In this document: positions 9,508-22,352 of the stretch, piece after piece | Layout: each line of letters opens with the position of its first letter | How positions within the stretch are numbered: position 1 is the first letter of the stretch | Source: Candidatus Hodarchaeota archaeon | GTDB lineage: Archaea > Asgardarchaeota > Lokiarchaeia > Sigyniarchaeales > SOKP01 | Assembly: GCA_048886685.1 (NCBI GenBank) | Contig: JBHLKM010000011.1 | Location: forward strand, 15,115-79,114 | Reading direction: 5' to 3' | DNA: 64,000 bases | Position numbers and translations under genes: made by a program | Notes under the pieces: model-generated | Told to the model about the DNA's origin: nothing | Databases searched by the model: none | The model's input: only the letters and a program-made list of their open reading frames with translations

Positions 9508-10278
9508 TTGAGTTCTATGGTAGAGGATGGATATTTAATTGACCCAAAGAAAAGGTTTTCTTCAAGAGTAGAAAATTATATCAAATATAGGCCTGACTAT
9601 CCCCCTATAATTATAGAGTTTCTAATTAAAAATAATATATTATCAAATAAGTCTATTATTGCTGATATAGGTTCTGGTACCGGTATTTTAAGTAAATATT
9701 TCTTGAATAATGGGAATAAGGTTTATGGAATAGAACCTAATAATGATATGAGAAACGCTGCGGAAAATCTTTTAAAAAATTATCCAGATTTTATAAGTAT
9801 TGATGGTTCAGCTGAAAAAACAGGATTAAAAAATGGGAGTATTGATTTAATTACTGCAGGGCAAGCCTTTCACTGGTTTAATGTAAAACAAGCAAAAAAA
9901 GAGTTTAAAAGGATTCTTAAGCCAAATGGATACGTAGCATTAATTTGGAATAATCGAAGAAAAACGGGTAAAGGCTTTTCAAGTCATTATGAAGAATTTA
10001 TTTTGAAATATGGAACAGATTATAAGCAGGTAAGAAAAACGGAGAAAAATGTAGATGAATTTTTTCAATATAAAAAATCGGTTTTTTATAATTATCAAGA
10101 TCTAGATTTTAATGGTTTAAAGGGACGTTTATTATCTGTTTCTTATATTCCATTAGAAGGAGGTCCGAATTACGAGAAAATGCTTGATGAATTAAAGATG
10201 ATTTTTGAGGAAAACATGAAGAATGGGAGAGTAAGGATTGAATATGATACAGAAATATATTATGGTAAGTTAAATTAA
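9508..10278 (+). CDS. Class I SAM-dependent methyltransferase
   Basis: IADIGSGTG motif I; AGQAFHWF; LKPNG. Confidence 0.88.
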   Translation: MSSMVEDGYLIDPKKRFSSRVENYIKYRPDYPPIIIEFLIKNNILSNKSIIADIGSGTGILSKYFLNNGNKVYGIEPNNDMRNAAENLLKNYPDFISIDGSAEKTGLKNGSIDLITAGQAFHWFNVKQAKKEFKRILKPNGYVALIWNNRRKTGKGFSSHYEEFILKYGTDYKQVRKTEKNVDEFFQYKKSVFYNYQDLDFNGLKGRLLSVSYIPLEGGPNYEKMLDELKMIFEENMKNGRVRIEYDTEIYYGKLN

Positions 10279-10290
10279 TTTAGTATCTAT

Positions 10291-11253
10291 CTAAATATAT
10301 TTTTTTAAAGATTCTTGAATTTGCTTGAATTTTTCAATTGAGCTTTGAATTTGACCAGATTTAAGAGAATTTAAACCTTGTTCATTTAGAGTCTTAATAG
10401 ATATTTTTAATTCTTCAAATTCAAAGTCAGCTTTGATTTCTTTTAATATAACTGAATATTCTTCTACTTTTCCCTTTTTATCAATTAATTCAGCAAGTTC
10501 AATTACATTCTCACAGTTTTTTATAGCAGATTGAAATTCTTTTCTTTCTCTCTGGACAGAGATTTTTTCTGAAATTTCACTAATTTTATTTTGAGTATTT
10601 TTATATGAATTTTCTGCGACAATTGTCTCTTTTTCAATTTCTTTTAATTTCTCTAAATAGTCCTTAATATCTTTACCTTGAACTTGTTTTATTAAATATG
10701 TTAATCTCAATTTTAGATCTTGAAATTGAAAAGTCGCTATTAATTCCGAACTTTCTTTTATTAACTTTAAAACTTCATCAGTTATTTCCTTTCTTGCCTT
10801 AGCCTTAATATATTCAATCTCAAAATTTCTCCATTTCAAGCTGGACTTTTTATCATTAAGTTCGAAGAGAGTCCTTTTAGCATCATTTATAATTAAGTTT
10901 ATTTTCGAGAAATCTTCAGTTTTGAAGGCTTTGTTATATTCTACCTCAAATTTTGAAAGTTCAGATTTTAGTTGAACAATTAATTGTTCTTGTTTTTCTT
11001 CTTCTCTCTTTTTTAATATACTCTTGATTCTCGCAATTAACTGTTCTTGTTCCCTAATAAATGATTCTAAATTTTCTGTTTCTGCTAACTCTATTATTTG
11101 ATCTGCTAAACCTAAGGCTTCCTTCAGCTGTCCTGTCATATAATATTGACCTTGAACTGCTGATATATCATCAATTTGCGAAATTACTTTTATTTTTCGC
11201 TTCTCTTCTTTTTCCTTAATTGGTTCTACCTCTTCCTCTGTCATCCTAACCAA
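10291..11253 (-). CDS. Helical-repeat protein (about 5 repeats of ~63 aa), paralog of the rod of the upstream gelsolin protein
   Basis: Shares LKW..FE, FQF, VAE.SY and NC..(I/V) blocks in the same order with 11246..12889; the two ORFs overlap. Confidence 0.75.
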   Translation of the reverse strand: MVRMTEEEVEPIKEKEEKRKIKVISQIDDISAVQGQYYMTGQLKEALGLADQIIELAETENLESFIREQEQLIARIKSILKKREEEKQEQLIVQLKSELSKFEVEYNKAFKTEDFSKINLIINDAKRTLFELNDKKSSLKWRNFEIEYIKAKARKEITDEVLKLIKESSELIATFQFQDLKLRLTYLIKQVQGKDIKDYLEKLKEIEKETIVAENSYKNTQNKISEISEKISVQRERKEFQSAIKNCENVIELAELIDKKGKVEEYSVILKEIKADFEFEELKISIKTLNEQGLNSLKSGQIQSSIEKFKQIQESLKKYI

Positions 11254-12889
11254 CTTTCTCTTGAATTTTTTTATTATATCCTTGAATTAGACTTATAATC
11301 TCTTCATATTTGATCAGGCATTCTTTATAAGATTTCGATTCTAAAGCCAGAATCCCCTCTCTACCTAAATTTTCAACATTATGGACAAGATCTTTAGCTG
11401 TATAAAAATTTTTCTCTAACTTATTCCAGTTTTCTTTTATTTTGTCATCAACAAGTTCAGAGAGAAAAAATTTAGATTTTATAATTATTTCTCCTGCTTT
11501 AGCTATGTCCATACACTTGAGTGAGGTATGAATCTCTTTATTCAATTGGTTGAGCTCCTTTTTCAAACTTTTTTGTTTTTCCTCGAAAATTCTTCTATTT
11601 TCAATTACTTCCTCGGTTTGACTTAAAATAAGAGAGTATCTCTCTTCTAAATCTGATTTATTTATTGATTTAATAAGCTTAAGAATACTTTGGCAATTTC
11701 TTAATGTTTCATCTATAAGGTTATTCTTTTGGGTTGATTTTATTTTTTTCTCTAATTCAGCAATTTCTGCTAATTTTTTGTTATAAGATTCTTCAGCTAC
11801 ATTAATTTCTTTTTTAATATCCTCTAATTTCTTCTTATAACCAAGGATCTCTAAATTTTGTACTCTTTTGAGTAATTCATTTAATTTTCTAGTTATAGTA
11901 TTAAACTGAAAATCTTCTTTTAATTTAGCATATTCATTAATAAAATCATCGCAAACGTTAATTAACTCAGCTTTTTGTTTAGTAGTTTGAATTTCGTTTT
12001 CGAATCCCTCCCACTTCAATTTAACGTCATCATTGATAAGATCTAAGAGAAAAACTTTTCCCTTTCCCATTATATTGTTTGCTTTTTCAATTTCAAGATT
12101 TTTCAAGGCAAGAAAAAGGTCAGTCTCTAATTTGTTCAATACTTTAATTAATCGATCTTGTTCATTTTTCCATATCTTCTTTTCTCTTGATAATAATTCT
12201 TCTACTGTTGGTATTTGAGATAAATCGTACGTAGAACTAAATTTTTTTTCAAATTCTTCAACCAATTGATGTGCTTTGAGAAACTGTTTTGATTCAATCA
12301 ATTTCGAAAATTCTTCTTCAACTGAAGATGCATTTTCTAAGAGTTTATCAACTATTTTCTTATCTTCATTTTTTGATTTGATATCTATTATCAATCTTTT
12401 CTGTTCTGTTAAAACAGCATTGTCTTCGATTTTATTCGCTAAAACCATTATCTCTTCTGAAGTTTTAATAGCATTGGGATAATCTTCTGAACCAATATGA
12501 TCTTCTAATTTAGTTCTTAAGCTATCTATTTTTCTTAAGGCAGGCAACATAATTTTTTCCTGATAATCAATGATTTTATACAGTTCTTCTTTAGATATAT
12601 TTAAATTCTTGAAAAATTCAAATGGTTCCTCCCGCATTTCAAATGTAAAATTACGAATAATACGAAAATCAGGAAATTCCTCTTTGACTAAAACCCGAAT
12701 ATTCGAAATGTGGTTTTTTAAAGCTTGAGTCGCGTTGCTTCCTATCCAGATATACATTGTTTTCTTTTGAGATATATAAATTGCTAAGATATTTACAATT
12801 GTAAAAACATCTTTTATATTTTCGTAAGAGACCTCATCGAAAGACCCATCAAAATTGAGCTTAAATATTTTAAACCCTGTTTCAGACAT
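11246..12889 (-). CDS. Gelsolin-like domain fused to about 7 helical repeats
   Basis: Residues 1-97 carry gelsolin-fold signatures (KIFKL, MYIWIGSNAT, EEPFEFFKNL); the rest is helical with ~63-aa periodicity. Confidence 0.75.
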   Translation of the reverse strand: MSETGFKIFKLNFDGSFDEVSYENIKDVFTIVNILAIYISQKKTMYIWIGSNATQALKNHISNIRVLVKEEFPDFRIIRNFTFEMREEPFEFFKNLNISKEELYKIIDYQEKIMLPALRKIDSLRTKLEDHIGSEDYPNAIKTSEEIMVLANKIEDNAVLTEQKRLIIDIKSKNEDKKIVDKLLENASSVEEEFSKLIESKQFLKAHQLVEEFEKKFSSTYDLSQIPTVEELLSREKKIWKNEQDRLIKVLNKLETDLFLALKNLEIEKANNIMGKGKVFLLDLINDDVKLKWEGFENEIQTTKQKAELINVCDDFINEYAKLKEDFQFNTITRKLNELLKRVQNLEILGYKKKLEDIKKEINVAEESYNKKLAEIAELEKKIKSTQKNNLIDETLRNCQSILKLIKSINKSDLEERYSLILSQTEEVIENRRIFEEKQKSLKKELNQLNKEIHTSLKCMDIAKAGEIIIKSKFFLSELVDDKIKENWNKLEKNFYTAKDLVHNVENLGREGILALESKSYKECLIKYEEIISLIQGYNKKIQEKVG

Positions 12890-13052
12890 AAAAAACTCAA
12901 CAAAGTACTTTATAATAAACTAGTCAAAAAATATCCTTTTAAACATTTACAAATATAAAGTTCAAAATCTATGTATTTTTCCCCAACTCTACCTTTTTAT
13001 AAAATAGAAATTTTATGATATTAAAAATAGAAAAGAGGTTTATGAGATAATA

Positions 13053-13574
13053 ATGCCAATAATTCCAATTGAAGTAAATGGAGAACTTAAATCTCCAAAA
13101 ATAGACCCTTCTTGCTGGATTTCAGATTCCGCTTGGATTATAGGAGATGTTACTATGGGTATGGATAATGTTGTATATCAAGGAGTAATTATACGAGGAG
13201 ATTTTGCGAAGGTTGATATTGGTGCAAAAAATATTTTTCAAGATGCTTGTATTATTAATACCGCCCAGGGTTTTAAGACTACTATCGGAGATAATAATTT
13301 GATAGGTTTTGGTGCTATAGTTCATGGCGCAACGCTGGGTAATAACACAGTTGTAGGCATCAAGTCAGTATTAATGATTACAGTAATCGTAGAAAATGAT
13401 GCCATGGTTGGTGCCACCTCTTTTGTTGGCATGGGTAAAAAAGTTCCAGCTGGACAAAAGTGGATTGGTCGTGAATTAAAAGGTGAAAACACCCAAGGAA
13501 GAATGTGGGAAGGAGGAAGACAATCTTGGCGTAAAATGGGTCTTGCAATGAAAACCCAACAATCAAAACCTTAA
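13053..13574 (+). CDS. Gamma-carbonic-anhydrase-like left-handed beta-helix protein
   Basis: Hexapeptide repeats, IIGDV, IRGD and QD motifs; only one His in the protein. Confidence 0.85.
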   Translation: MPIIPIEVNGELKSPKIDPSCWISDSAWIIGDVTMGMDNVVYQGVIIRGDFAKVDIGAKNIFQDACIINTAQGFKTTIGDNNLIGFGAIVHGATLGNNTVVGIKSVLMITVIVENDAMVGATSFVGMGKKVPAGQKWIGRELKGENTQGRMWEGGRQSWRKMGLAMKTQQSKP

Positions 13575-18156: not shown

Positions 18157-18978
18157 ATGTCAGTTTTAGGAATTGATAGGGAAAAATGTTCAAATTGTAA
18201 GCAATGTATACTCGAGTGCGGTCGAGGTTATTTTTCTGTTAATAAAGATAAAGAGGTAATTTTCAATGAAAGCTTAAATACATGTAATATCTGTGGACAT
18301 TGTATAGCAATTTGTCCAGAAGAAGCGATTATTACAAAAGATCTCGATGATATAGAGACTTTTCCAGGTATAGACTCTCCAAAAAATATTGTAAACTACG
18401 ACAGTATCTATAAATTTATTCGCGCTAAACGTTCAACAAGACGTTATAAAAATAAGAAAGTTCCTAAGGAGTTAATTGAAAAAGTCTTTGAAGCAATGAG
18501 ATACGCTCCAAGCGCTACTAACGCCCGAGCATGGCGATATGTAATTATATCTGATCCTGAAAAAATCGAAGCGTTGAGCGATGAGATTATAAAGACAAAT
18601 TATGCTTATCTGGGATTTCGATCGGGGGAACAAGCACTCAAATATTTCAAGTCTATAGGTAGAGGTATTTTTTACAATGCACCTCATGTAATTGTATTAT
18701 ATTATAGGGTTGTTGAAAAAAACAGAGTAATGGTTGGATTACGAGCAAATGATGCAGGGATCGCTTTAACTTATGGAATGCTCGCTGCAGAAAGTCTTGG
18801 TCTAGGAACATGTTGGATTGGACAGATTCAAGGAGCCATCCCTATGAATAAAGAGATTTTAAATATTTTGGGTATAAAAGGTATGGTGCTAGGTGCTTTT
18901 ATTCTGGGTTATCCTGCAGTTAAATACCGTAGAACAGCCCCAAGACCACCACTAAAAATAAAGGGACTTGAAGATTAA
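18157..18978 (+). CDS. Ferredoxin-nitroreductase fusion
   Basis: Two CxxCxxCxxxC motifs, then KRSTRRY, APSATN and LGLGTCWIG. Confidence 0.9.
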   Translation: MSVLGIDREKCSNCKQCILECGRGYFSVNKDKEVIFNESLNTCNICGHCIAICPEEAIITKDLDDIETFPGIDSPKNIVNYDSIYKFIRAKRSTRRYKNKKVPKELIEKVFEAMRYAPSATNARAWRYVIISDPEKIEALSDEIIKTNYAYLGFRSGEQALKYFKSIGRGIFYNAPHVIVLYYRVVEKNRVMVGLRANDAGIALTYGMLAAESLGLGTCWIGQIQGAIPMNKEILNILGIKGMVLGAFILGYPAVKYRRTAPRPPLKIKGLED

Positions 18979-21900
18979 GGATTCTTGATAAGAAATATTT
19001 CTGTAAGTAGATTTTCCATTACTGGAATATCCCTTAATTCGACAACTTCGCTTGTTTCTTGAAATTTTTTCAGAGTTTGCCATATGGTGGTATTATTTTG
19101 AATACGTTCTACAAATTCCGTTAATTTCTGCTTAGCCAGATATATCTGACCCTTGAACAAGTAACAAATTAAGAAATCTGACACCGATTCCATAAGTACC
19201 GTATACTGTCCGAATTTAGCGCGATCGAGTCCTTCAGAAAAAATTTCATCACTAATGGAACTAAAGGAACTCATAAAACCACCAAATAGTTCATCGTCAA
19301 ATTTCCATTCCTCAGCAAATGGATAAGAAAAAATAGGAACTCCTCCTGTAGTTAAAATTAAAAGTACTACAGGTTCTTCTTCAACTGTCAAGGTTGGTTT
19401 GAATTCCTTATCCTTCTCAATTTTATTTGAAGCTTGATTAATCTCTTCTGAGAATTGGCGTATTTCGCCTAACCTTGGTGATTCACTTATTTCTATTGGG
19501 CAATTAGGAGCAACTATTCCAATAGTACTCCTAGAAATAGATGGTTCTTGTATAGTCCCTAGTGCTGTAAAAAGGATTGTTTCTTCTCTTTCTACCCTAT
19601 GTAATCGATCTAAAACCTCATTTTCTTTTTCTTTATAACCTGCTTTTCCAAATAATTCAATAGCAGATTTTAAATATTCAGAACCGATTTTTAAAAGTTT
19701 ACCTTTATTATTAAGATCAATTTCTTCGTCAGCCTTAATCAACTGCCATGCAGCATCAAAATAAATTGAAGTTGCTTGAGCCCAATCGGCACCGCTTTTA
19801 AAACCTCCTTTTTCATATAAAGAAGCTGCTTTACTGAGCATAACTTTTACTTTAGGATATAATTGTGTTTTAGATTCTGTTTCAAGGGATTCATCAAACT
19901 TACAACCATTCTCTAAAGCTTGACAAAAAGCAGAATTACCAGATGCTAGAAATTTTAGTTTGGTATCAGAAAAGAGATTACTAGCTTTCGTAAATAATGT
20001 TGCTGCTTCTGCAAATCGGGTATGTTCCTCATATTTTTCTGCCAATTCCATGCTTTCCCATGCTCTACATAGAAAATAAATTGCTTCCAATTCTTTTCGC
20101 TCCCGTTCTAATTTGAAACGAGTGCAAACACCTCTAAATTTTGATGCTGCTGTAGCAAATAATTCTGCTGCTGTTGCGTGTTCTCCTTTCCTCCCAAGAA
20201 TTCTGGCATTTTCAAGGTTAATTCTAGCAGAACAATAATTTATTCTGATATTAGCAACTTTCATAAGTTTATCGATTCTCATCAATTCGTTTTCTCCTTT
20301 TGGTTCCTTAGAGGCTTTCTCGAGATTAATAATAGCTGCTTCAAAGGCTTCTATAGTTTTCTCATATAATTCTATCGCTTGTTTCTGTTGCTCTAGCTTA
20401 CTAATATGTTCTGCTTCCTCTAAAAGTGCCCATGCCTTATAGTATGTTGCTTCAAAATTATATCTAACCATTTCTTTCAAGATATCACTTGCTTTAAGAT
20501 AGAACTCTTTAGCTTTTAAATGATTTTCACCTTTATGATTTACTTTGGCATTTTCAATCAAGTTCCAAGCCAAAGAATATTGAATTTTTTCCCTAATTCT
20601 TTTGATTAATGGTTTATATTCTATTTTCTTTAATACATCTTCATGAATTTCACGCGATTTTTCATAATTTTTAGCAGAGCTAAGGTGATTAGCTAATCGA
20701 TCATCTATTCGAGCAGCATATTGGTATGCGTTAGCAGCATAAACTTTATAGCCTCGTTCAATACACTCATTAATAACCTTAGAAAAATTCTCTTCAGCTT
20801 TTTGTAAAACGTCGTTATTTTGCGACAAAATACCAAGCTCTTCCAAGAGGAGTCCAATTCTTAGTCGAGCTGTGATTATACCTGTTCGAGATTCGACTGT
20901 ATGTTCTATATGGTTCTTTTGGGCTTCTATAGCGATAGTTAAATATTCGATTTTTTCTTTTTCATTCTTTGCAAGATCAACAAGAGTTTTATAGGCATTA
21001 TACCTGGCCAAGTAACCAAAAGACCGAAGAAATCCACCTTCAGCTTCTAGTCCCAGTTCATAAGCTGAATTAGCATTTTCAAGCATTTTTTCAATATATA
21101 TCCCTTGTTTGTTAGTATCTGATGTCAATAAAGCTAATTGTGAATATAGTGAGGTTAAAGACGAATTAATGGCAGGGTCTCTCCTTGAAATAAGCATTTT
21201 TAGGAAGCTTTCCCCATATTCAATTCCTTTTTCAGCAAACTCAATTCTTTGAGCCGGTGTAAATATACTCCACCTTGCTACTATTGAATAATAATTTATT
21301 AAAATTCTATTAATAGAACCTGCAAAAAGATAGAATCCAAGGAATTGCTTTCCTAATTCTTCCATTTCCGAGACATCAGCTACTAATCTTTTTTGAAGAT
21401 AATCAAGTTTTCCACCAAATAATGCCCACCAGTCAATCCAACTTAATAGATCAAGGATGTAGTACTTATCATTTATTGTTCTAGCAATATCCAGAGCCTT
21501 TTCAAGATAAAGCAATCCTTTCTCTGTAAATTCTTCTTGTTTTTTCTCATCTTCAATAAAATGAAAACCAAAGAAACAATTCATACTACCATAGTTAGAG
21601 TATGCTATCATTAGAGATTGAGAATCATCCTTTTTTTCAACATGTATCATAGTTTCATTGCTCCTAGAAAGCAATTCTCTGAAGATTTCTTTCCAACGGG
21701 TATCCCACCTAAATTCTTGAGTTTGTACTTGAGTGGATCTTAAAAGTAATTCGTATTGCAATGATTCTGTTAGAAATTTACTATTACCTATTTCTTTTGA
21801 AATTTTCCAAGATTTTTTTGCAGACTCTATGCCTTTTTGATGAATCTTTTTCCTGTTCACATTAGATTCAGGAGGAATCAAAATTGAAAAAAGTGCAAAA

Positions 21901-22352
21901 TATGATAATGCAGCAGCTAGATTCTCTTTATCATCTTTTTTATAATAAAAATCTATTAATTGTGGGAGCAGGTCTCTAGCTTTCTCTGAGAAGTTTACAA
22001 CTTCTCTTAAAGAAGCTGCGGAATAAAAGTTAATTTGAAGGACACCCACTTCGCATTCTAATATACCAATCCTATTATTTGATTTATTAAAAAGTACTTT
22101 AGCTTTTTCAAAATATTTAATGATTTCATTCTTAGATTTTATTAATTGCTCTTCTGTGTCTACAGTGGAAGCAGCATTAAGATTAACATATCCTAGTTTT
22201 TTATATGTCTCTGCTGCTTCCTCAACCATATTTTTACTTTGAAACAGCTCTGCGGCCTGATTGTAGAATATTAGCGCAGTTGTCCAATCACATATATTTT
22301 CTGCTTGTTGCGCTTTTTCCAATAAATCCTCTACATTTTCTTCAGTCAACAT
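18975..22352 (-). CDS. Large TPR-like solenoid with C-terminal longin/roadblock-like domain
   Basis: Repeated A..Y..A..L helical pairs over ~950 aa; C-terminal beta-beta-alpha-beta-beta-beta-alpha-alpha pattern (LLILTTGGVPIFSY..DDELFGGFMSS). Confidence 0.75.
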   Translation of the reverse strand: MLTEENVEDLLEKAQQAENICDWTTALIFYNQAAELFQSKNMVEEAAETYKKLGYVNLNAASTVDTEEQLIKSKNEIIKYFEKAKVLFNKSNNRIGILECEVGVLQINFYSAASLREVVNFSEKARDLLPQLIDFYYKKDDKENLAAALSYFALFSILIPPESNVNRKKIHQKGIESAKKSWKISKEIGNSKFLTESLQYELLLRSTQVQTQEFRWDTRWKEIFRELLSRSNETMIHVEKKDDSQSLMIAYSNYGSMNCFFGFHFIEDEKKQEEFTEKGLLYLEKALDIARTINDKYYILDLLSWIDWWALFGGKLDYLQKRLVADVSEMEELGKQFLGFYLFAGSINRILINYYSIVARWSIFTPAQRIEFAEKGIEYGESFLKMLISRRDPAINSSLTSLYSQLALLTSDTNKQGIYIEKMLENANSAYELGLEAEGGFLRSFGYLARYNAYKTLVDLAKNEKEKIEYLTIAIEAQKNHIEHTVESRTGIITARLRIGLLLEELGILSQNNDVLQKAEENFSKVINECIERGYKVYAANAYQYAARIDDRLANHLSSAKNYEKSREIHEDVLKKIEYKPLIKRIREKIQYSLAWNLIENAKVNHKGENHLKAKEFYLKASDILKEMVRYNFEATYYKAWALLEEAEHISKLEQQKQAIELYEKTIEAFEAAIINLEKASKEPKGENELMRIDKLMKVANIRINYCSARINLENARILGRKGEHATAAELFATAASKFRGVCTRFKLERERKELEAIYFLCRAWESMELAEKYEEHTRFAEAATLFTKASNLFSDTKLKFLASGNSAFCQALENGCKFDESLETESKTQLYPKVKVMLSKAASLYEKGGFKSGADWAQATSIYFDAAWQLIKADEEIDLNNKGKLLKIGSEYLKSAIELFGKAGYKEKENEVLDRLHRVEREETILFTALGTIQEPSISRSTIGIVAPNCPIEISESPRLGEIRQFSEEINQASNKIEKDKEFKPTLTVEEEPVVLLILTTGGVPIFSYPFAEEWKFDDELFGGFMSSFSSISDEIFSEGLDRAKFGQYTVLMESVSDFLICYLFKGQIYLAKQKLTEFVERIQNNTTIWQTLKKFQETSEVVELRDIPVMENLLTEIFLIKNP

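Follow-up and report, generated by a model that had tools for sequence, protein, structure and literature searches.

A gelsolin-headed helical rod and its headless paralog in Lokiarchaeia: a candidate calcium-independent adaptor or tether

Background

Descriptions of actin regulators in Asgard archaea so far concern profilins and the small gelsolins ProGel, 1DGelX and 2DGel; as far as we found, no long structural linker has been reported among them. ProGel binds actin and bundles its filaments without calcium, and Asgard 1DGelX has one N-terminal gelsolin domain that lacks calcium-site residues, followed by a C-terminal extension called coiled-coil (PMC7444086). The gelsolin-like domain of Sec23/Sec24 is a gelsolin fold serving small-GTPase trafficking (PMC11914678). 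In the window analyzed here, a stretch of 64,000 nucleotides from a Candidatus Hodarchaeota archaeon (contig JBHLKM010000011.1), two adjacent genes encode a rod that opens with a gelsolin-like domain (protein A) and a paralogous rod without such a head (protein B). The question raised by this locus is what the two proteins do together, if anything, and whether they resemble the spectrin or alpha-actinin cross-linkers to which the initial annotation had likened their layout. The A/B family is a concrete candidate for a long structural linker in Asgard archaea, and we argue that the pair may form a calcium-independent adaptor or tether.

Gene boundaries and genomic context

Both genes (Table 1) are flanked by a divergent gene at 13053 on one side and, on the other, by a convergent gene ending at 10278; the latter (window 9508-10278), by eye probably a SAM-dependent methyltransferase, is the conserved neighbor of B throughout the genus. 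The initial annotation had B overlapping A, yet B probably starts at the ATG at 11244, 1 nt past the stop codon of A, and with this start there is no overlap. The close orthologs of B are 317-318 aa long and the gaps between A and B are 1 or -4 nt. The genes are apparently translationally coupled, and their spacing suggests that they are co-transcribed. A likely promoter, judged by eye, is an AT-rich motif that lies 20-50 nt upstream of A and is alike across the genus; a scan for bacterial-type promoters returned 16 sites against 16.4 expected, and a search for recent DNA-level repeats gave none of note. Hydropathy over 19 residues peaks below 1.0 in both proteins, and because neither has a hydrophobic segment both were taken as cytoplasmic. 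Their named relatives belong for the most part to Promethearchaeota/Lokiarchaeia, Lokiarch_48210 among them.

Table 1. Features of the A/B locus, in window coordinates
Feature	Position	Strand	Description
Gene A	11246-12889	minus	547 aa
Gene A, head	12599..12889	minus	aa 1-97; predicted gelsolin fold, own clade, calcium-site residues absent
Gene A, rod	11246..12598	minus	units a-b-c-d-a-c and conserved C-terminal cap hairpin
Gene B, TTG-started ORF	10291-11253	minus	320 aa
Gene B, likely extent	10291..11244	minus	headless paralogous rod, 317 aa, units n-c-d-a-cap
AT-rich stretch 5' of A	12905..12940	minus	candidate archaeal promoter, recognized by eye

The head of A and its family

Structure modeling bears out the gelsolin-like domain that had been proposed for the start of A: aa 5-97 are predicted to adopt a true gelsolin fold. 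Built from 87 sequences, the AlphaFold2 model of aa 1-160 has a mean pLDDT of 92 (in a first full-length model of A the head was unfolded, with pLDDT <50). Searching with this model in Foldseek, 50/50 among the matches listed were gelsolin-family chains, headed by ProGel 7C2F (TM 0.83 by target), and comparison by VIA with Thorarchaeota ProGel gave Z 12.5 and rmsd 1.8 over 88/88 residues, against Z 7.8 and lower for Sec23a/24. At the sequence level profiles were required, the head being missed by a Pfam search and by a single-sequence PDB search (7C2F at E 0.41 only); the head profile matches 7C2F at E 1.3e-6, and the top PDB matches to profiles of distant relatives are gelsolin-family chains. 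The gelsolin signatures W-x-G and E-x-x-x-F are present in the head family (W48 100%, G50 95%, E88 95% and F92 94%).

The head belongs to a family of its own: some 85 representatives have E values below 1e-10, whereas canonical gelsolins mostly score from about 1e-6 upward. In a gelsolin tree of 107 columns, from which three wrong-frame ORFs and three long-branch rows were left out, a 100/99 branch separates this family from the ProGel, 1DGelX-like and 2DGel domains. It was found in 92/398 Asgard genomes searched, all of them within three families of one order, and each A protein has one head, not two or more. The genome studied here encodes actin and also a gelsolin set of its own, comprising a 97-aa ProGel, 1DGelX-like proteins of 279 and 386 aa, a 281-aa single-domain protein and a 335-aa 2DGel. 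Some members of the head family (P0138, P0145, P0159, P0202 and P0204) carry a different conserved C-terminal domain in place of the cap.

In ProGel and 1DGelX the helix after W-x-G, which we take to correspond to the actin-binding helix of cofilin, has a recognizable motif (in A numbering V55 81%, R56 75%, F59 87%, I60 81% and R63 75%). At the same positions the head family is variable and mostly polar (Q 40%, S 34%, N 45%, H 35% or Y 32%, and Q 22%, respectively, the top residue reaching 22-45%), and position 62 is a Pro in 49% of the family. The buried face of the helix (57, 61, 64 and 68) is conserved, position 58 keeps a basic residue in 76%, and other surface positions of the head are retained as well (K43 86%, R79 95% and T82 77%). 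The calcium-site positions of gelsolin G1 (type II Glu and type I Asp) have lost their ligands in the head family, position 57 being Leu in 85% and position 69 not Asp, while the 2DGel of the same genome shows Glu57 and Asp69 in the same alignment. Any activity of the head should thus be independent of calcium. Since the helix by which gelsolin G1 contacts actin is made of small and polar residues, a head that has lost the ProGel motif could still bind actin; the erosion of the motif nevertheless reduces the chance, and from the sequences we would rate actin binding by the head at a little under even odds.

Repeat units of the two rods

In the full model of A, helices of about 40 aa and about 17 aa alternate with pLDDT near 90 and form linked three-helix bundles, one long and one short helix making up a unit of 59-70 aa. 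The short helices start at 137, 203, 267, 329, 392, 462 and 521, which are exactly the places where seven helix-turn motifs had been read from the sequence, and the low pTM of the model (0.47) fits a flexible rod. A and B are paralogous rods, as had been supposed (32% over 246 aa, E 2e-20). The single repeat of about 63 aa assumed in the initial annotation proved right in size, but profile comparison distinguished five unit types (Table 1), n being nearest to a, and non-equivalent units score just 7-24 against each other. Likewise, the proposed alignment of the B units to A repeats 1, 3, 4, 5 and 7 was recovered by profiles (B1-A1 E 1e-5, B3-A4 3e-15, B4-A5 4e-16, B5-A7 1e-6) with the exception that B2 pairs slightly better with A6 (2e-18) than with A3 (5e-15), both of which are of type c.

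Within the genus the length of A steps by whole units, mostly by a c-d-a block of about 195 aa (345, 417, 540 and 737 aa), and that of B is steady near 317-337 aa. Across genera A ranges over 297-914 aa and B over about 300-960 aa, and the lengths are unmatched (Spearman -0.27, with related genomes not being independent), which speaks for a local contact and against spectrin-type dimers aligned side by side, in register and over their full length. The C-terminal cap hairpin is retained in most members, among proteins that run from 164 to 1417 aa in length.

Searches with the whole rod returned generic helical matches only (TM <=0.14) and no prominent spectrin entry, although a remote link may exist; Pfam gave no spectrin match for A or B, and a TPR_2 match in B (E 6e-4) was under the cut-off. 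Single units superpose on MIT-like bundles (katanin p60N, Vta1 and calpain-7) at rmsd 1.5-1.9 over about 60 residues, but the Z of 8.8 lies within the helical-bundle background and ESCRT-III binding is not indicated. The likeness to the plakin domain of plectin (Z 8.6, rmsd 15.7) is that of generic three-helix bundles.

Other arrangements of the units were also observed. In three genomes of the genus, stand-alone proteins of 185-190 aa match units a-b at E of about 1e-20 to 1e-25 (L053:3922-4479, L054:2713-3276 and L055:3620-4189); a gene that begins like a small GTPase is about 1.3-1.4 kb away. Long B variants of 635-960 aa (L101:2154-4589, L102, L103, L105 and L108) have a conserved N-terminal domain of about 100 aa where A has the gelsolin head, and their partners are short A proteins of 297-308 or about 568 aa.

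Conservation and co-folding of the pair

We examined 72 loci with a capped A and downstream DNA, all within the family of the source organism. A headless rod comes directly after A in 69 of them (66 genomes, 8 genera), mostly with gaps <50 nt, so that the pair, whose synteny had been suggested as a check, is conserved; in the remaining three the next gene is one encoding a longin-TPR-longin protein. Among the 52 genomes of the genus, both genes were found in 25 and neither in 25, A stands at a contig end in 2, and an intact B alone occurs in none, although a single event can remove neighboring genes and the genomes, being related, do not count as independent. Since about half of the genus, including genomes that are 97-100% complete, yielded no pair, the pair is not part of a core cytoskeleton. 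Decay in place is shown by L058 in G014 and L188 in G012, where short pieces of A or B remain at the usual locus next to the methyltransferase-like gene.

Co-folding of A with B as a 1:1 pair gave a score of 0.47, the best of 3 controls reaching 0.14, with at least 91% of contacts common to the runs and partner pLDDT of at least 80. The mark used is passed by 58/80 solved complexes and 2/110 mismatched pairs, but scores of 0.60 or less include just 7 of the 80 solved complexes and both passing mismatches. Co-folding returned no interface, moreover, and paralogous rods could score through their self-likeness. The model thus backs a complex weakly, and the heteromeric half of the co-expressed heteromeric rod postulated at the outset stands to that extent; taken together, co-folding and the gene evidence make a physical A:B complex probable.

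Long relatives and neighboring genes

In the longer members of the family, A, B or both have a tandem of two beta-sandwich domains that separates the rod from the cap. In one genus A reads head-a-b-c-d-a-sandwiches-cap and B has this layout minus the head, which indicates that B is a whole-gene duplicate. In the sandwich/cap tree A and B of the source family group together (100/98), the deeper order of the B copies being unsettled. Single-copy A without B occurs in the sister family, where a tandem pair with both copies headed (L039:216-4783; 738 and 777 aa) represents a separate duplication (100/99). Judging from these relatives, the genus has lost the beta-sandwiches, and its pair derives by reduction from a gelsolin-rod-twin beta-sandwich protein. 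The twin beta-sandwich itself had no PDB sequence match; the best lead is DUF11/Ig-like (best E 6.5e-7, 4/14 distant members, Atlas score <=0.84), and a match to an adaptor mu-subunit (E 0.013, one member) is likewise a lead only.

Nine genomes of two families (G054, G052, G043, G155, G158, G065, G093, G092 and G072) have, after A or B, a gene for the longin-TPR-longin protein of about 680 aa, with an Arf-like GTPase next in G054 and a Rab-like GTPase two genes on in G052. Its N-terminal domain resembles longins of the NPR2/folliculin/C9orf72 type (TM 0.62-0.72), and in genus g28 a single gene of about 148 aa after B is homologous to its C-terminal domain (probability 97.7). We found the longin-TPR-longin gene in 0/51 other genomes of the genus and not in the genome studied here, and the ancestral context may therefore no longer hold in this genus.

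Discussion

Taking the results together, we favor, at a probability of roughly 0.45, the reading of A:B as a calcium-independent heteromeric adaptor or tether rod. A and B would be translated together as subunits of a single scaffold, cytoplasmic, flexible and alpha-helical, with one gelsolin-fold head per A. Relatives suggest that the ancestral gene had a gelsolin head, units a-b-c-d-a, two beta-sandwich domains and a cap, that it was duplicated in tandem within the lineage of the source family and that the second copy shed its head, and that, in the genus, the two copies later lost their beta-sandwich pairs and the longin-TPR-longin partner gene disappeared. The rod would serve as a spacer of tolerated variable length and the head as a calcium-independent docking module rather than a severing or capping unit, with B adding a second rod or cap surface and stabilizing the complex. 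The most likely single ligand of the head would be the side of Lokiactin filaments, weakly bound, a proposal with the odds leaning somewhat against it; the main alternative ligand would be a partner from the longin/small-GTPase machinery.

That alternative leads to a different explanation, tentative yet to be taken seriously, in which the head no longer binds actin and is a protein-interaction domain like that of Sec23/Sec24, so that A:B scaffolds a trafficking or signaling complex of longin proteins and small GTPases. The actin-helix motif is eroded while K43, R79 and T82 are retained, and the genes that follow A or B in the nine genomes and in g28, the GTPases near two of them and the type of longin involved all point in this direction. 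Weighing on the other side, the fold of the head is nearer ProGel than Sec23a/24, the polar helix with which gelsolin G1 binds actin deprives the motif loss of decisive weight, and the genus yielded no longin partner. An explanation that joins both ligands, and would make A/B a fourth, so far undescribed architecture of Asgard gelsolin protein, is rather unlikely: a heteromeric tether of tunable length whose gelsolin head grips Lokiactin filaments while the ancestral twin beta-sandwich/cap end docks the longin-TPR-longin complex and a small GTPase.

It is improbable that A and B are independent paralogs, monomers or homo-oligomers adjacent through operon structure only, with B perhaps competing for or regulating the partners of A. 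Tandem duplicates often remain adjacent, the sister family has A without B and the score of the A:B complex is weak, but in all 8 genera B is conserved and intact and has an N-terminal unit of its own, and in the genus no intact B was found by itself. Least likely is a cross-linker of the spectrin or alpha-actinin kind, with A and B side by side in an oligomer whose two or more heads bundle filaments, since the head-plus-rod layout, the paralogous partner in the same operon, the weak co-folding score and the plakin likeness are set against a 1:1 A:B complex that carries one head, unmatched lengths, a unit of two helices and about 63 aa and an eroded actin motif, so that the layout fits poorly.

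Comparison with known proteins places the adaptor or tether proposed here among, yet apart from, the Asgard gelsolins. ProGel (7C2F), the structure closest to the head of A, is a lone domain that keeps the hydrophobic/basic actin helix and shares 17-18% identity with it. 1DGelX is like A in its single N-terminal gelsolin domain with a C-terminal extension and in lacking calcium-site residues; A differs in that its head stands in a separate clade, has lost the actin-helix motif, is accompanied by a headless partner gene and was found in one order only. The rod-unit profiles have no match in the 311-aa Thor-type proteins or in the tails of the genome's own 279- and 386-aa 1DGelX-like proteins, and for this reason A is not a 1DGelX ortholog; the Thor-type tails match the own 279-aa protein (E about 2e-11), the Thor-type not being tied by accession to the protein of PMC7444086. 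2DGel and the calcium-regulated gelsolins are unlike A, which is without the Glu/Asp calcium ligands and has one gelsolin domain only. Sec23/Sec24 differ from A in their lower structural score and in further Sec23 domains that A does not have. Spectrin, alpha-actinin and plakins share with A/B a globular head, paralogous subunits and a rod in which continuous helices link three-helix bundles, but spectrin and alpha-actinin have a calponin-homology domain in place of the gelsolin fold, spectrin repeats measure about 106 aa against the five types of about 63 aa in A/B, whose subunit lengths are unmatched, and the likeness may be one of layout.

The pair had been thought undescribed, and our literature search, incomplete in coverage, found no description of it. 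We regard A/B as a so far undescribed variant of the single-gelsolin type in Asgard archaea. If the head binds actin, the rod would be a filament anchor or spacer for cells whose protrusions are filled with actin; otherwise the family would be a prokaryotic reuse of the gelsolin fold beside longin/GTPase genes, as in Sec23/24. Should the tether that joins both ligands prove true, it would be an archaeal link from the actin cytoskeleton to GTPase-controlled machinery of the trafficking type, of which this window holds a stripped-down version. The family also documents the transition from a single gene to a headed and headless pair. Because the system is lineage-restricted and patchy, it has little direct bearing on the ancestry of eukaryotes.

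Beta-sandwiches akin to the tails of long A/B proteins occur in tandem in a widespread Asgard family of headless proteins of 450-600 aa, matched in 110/398 genomes (L173:5007-6566, L174:4931-6703, L178:4730-6295, L183, L186, L176, L177 and L189). Several of these genes adjoin a TPR/longin gene and some lie near a small GTPase; the family gave no PDB sequence match, and its leads to DUF11 and the adaptor mu-subunit are weak. Elsewhere in the window (18975-22352), the longin-like domain at the C-terminus of the 681-aa partner has a weak match (E 7e-4) in the C-terminus of a 1125-aa protein.
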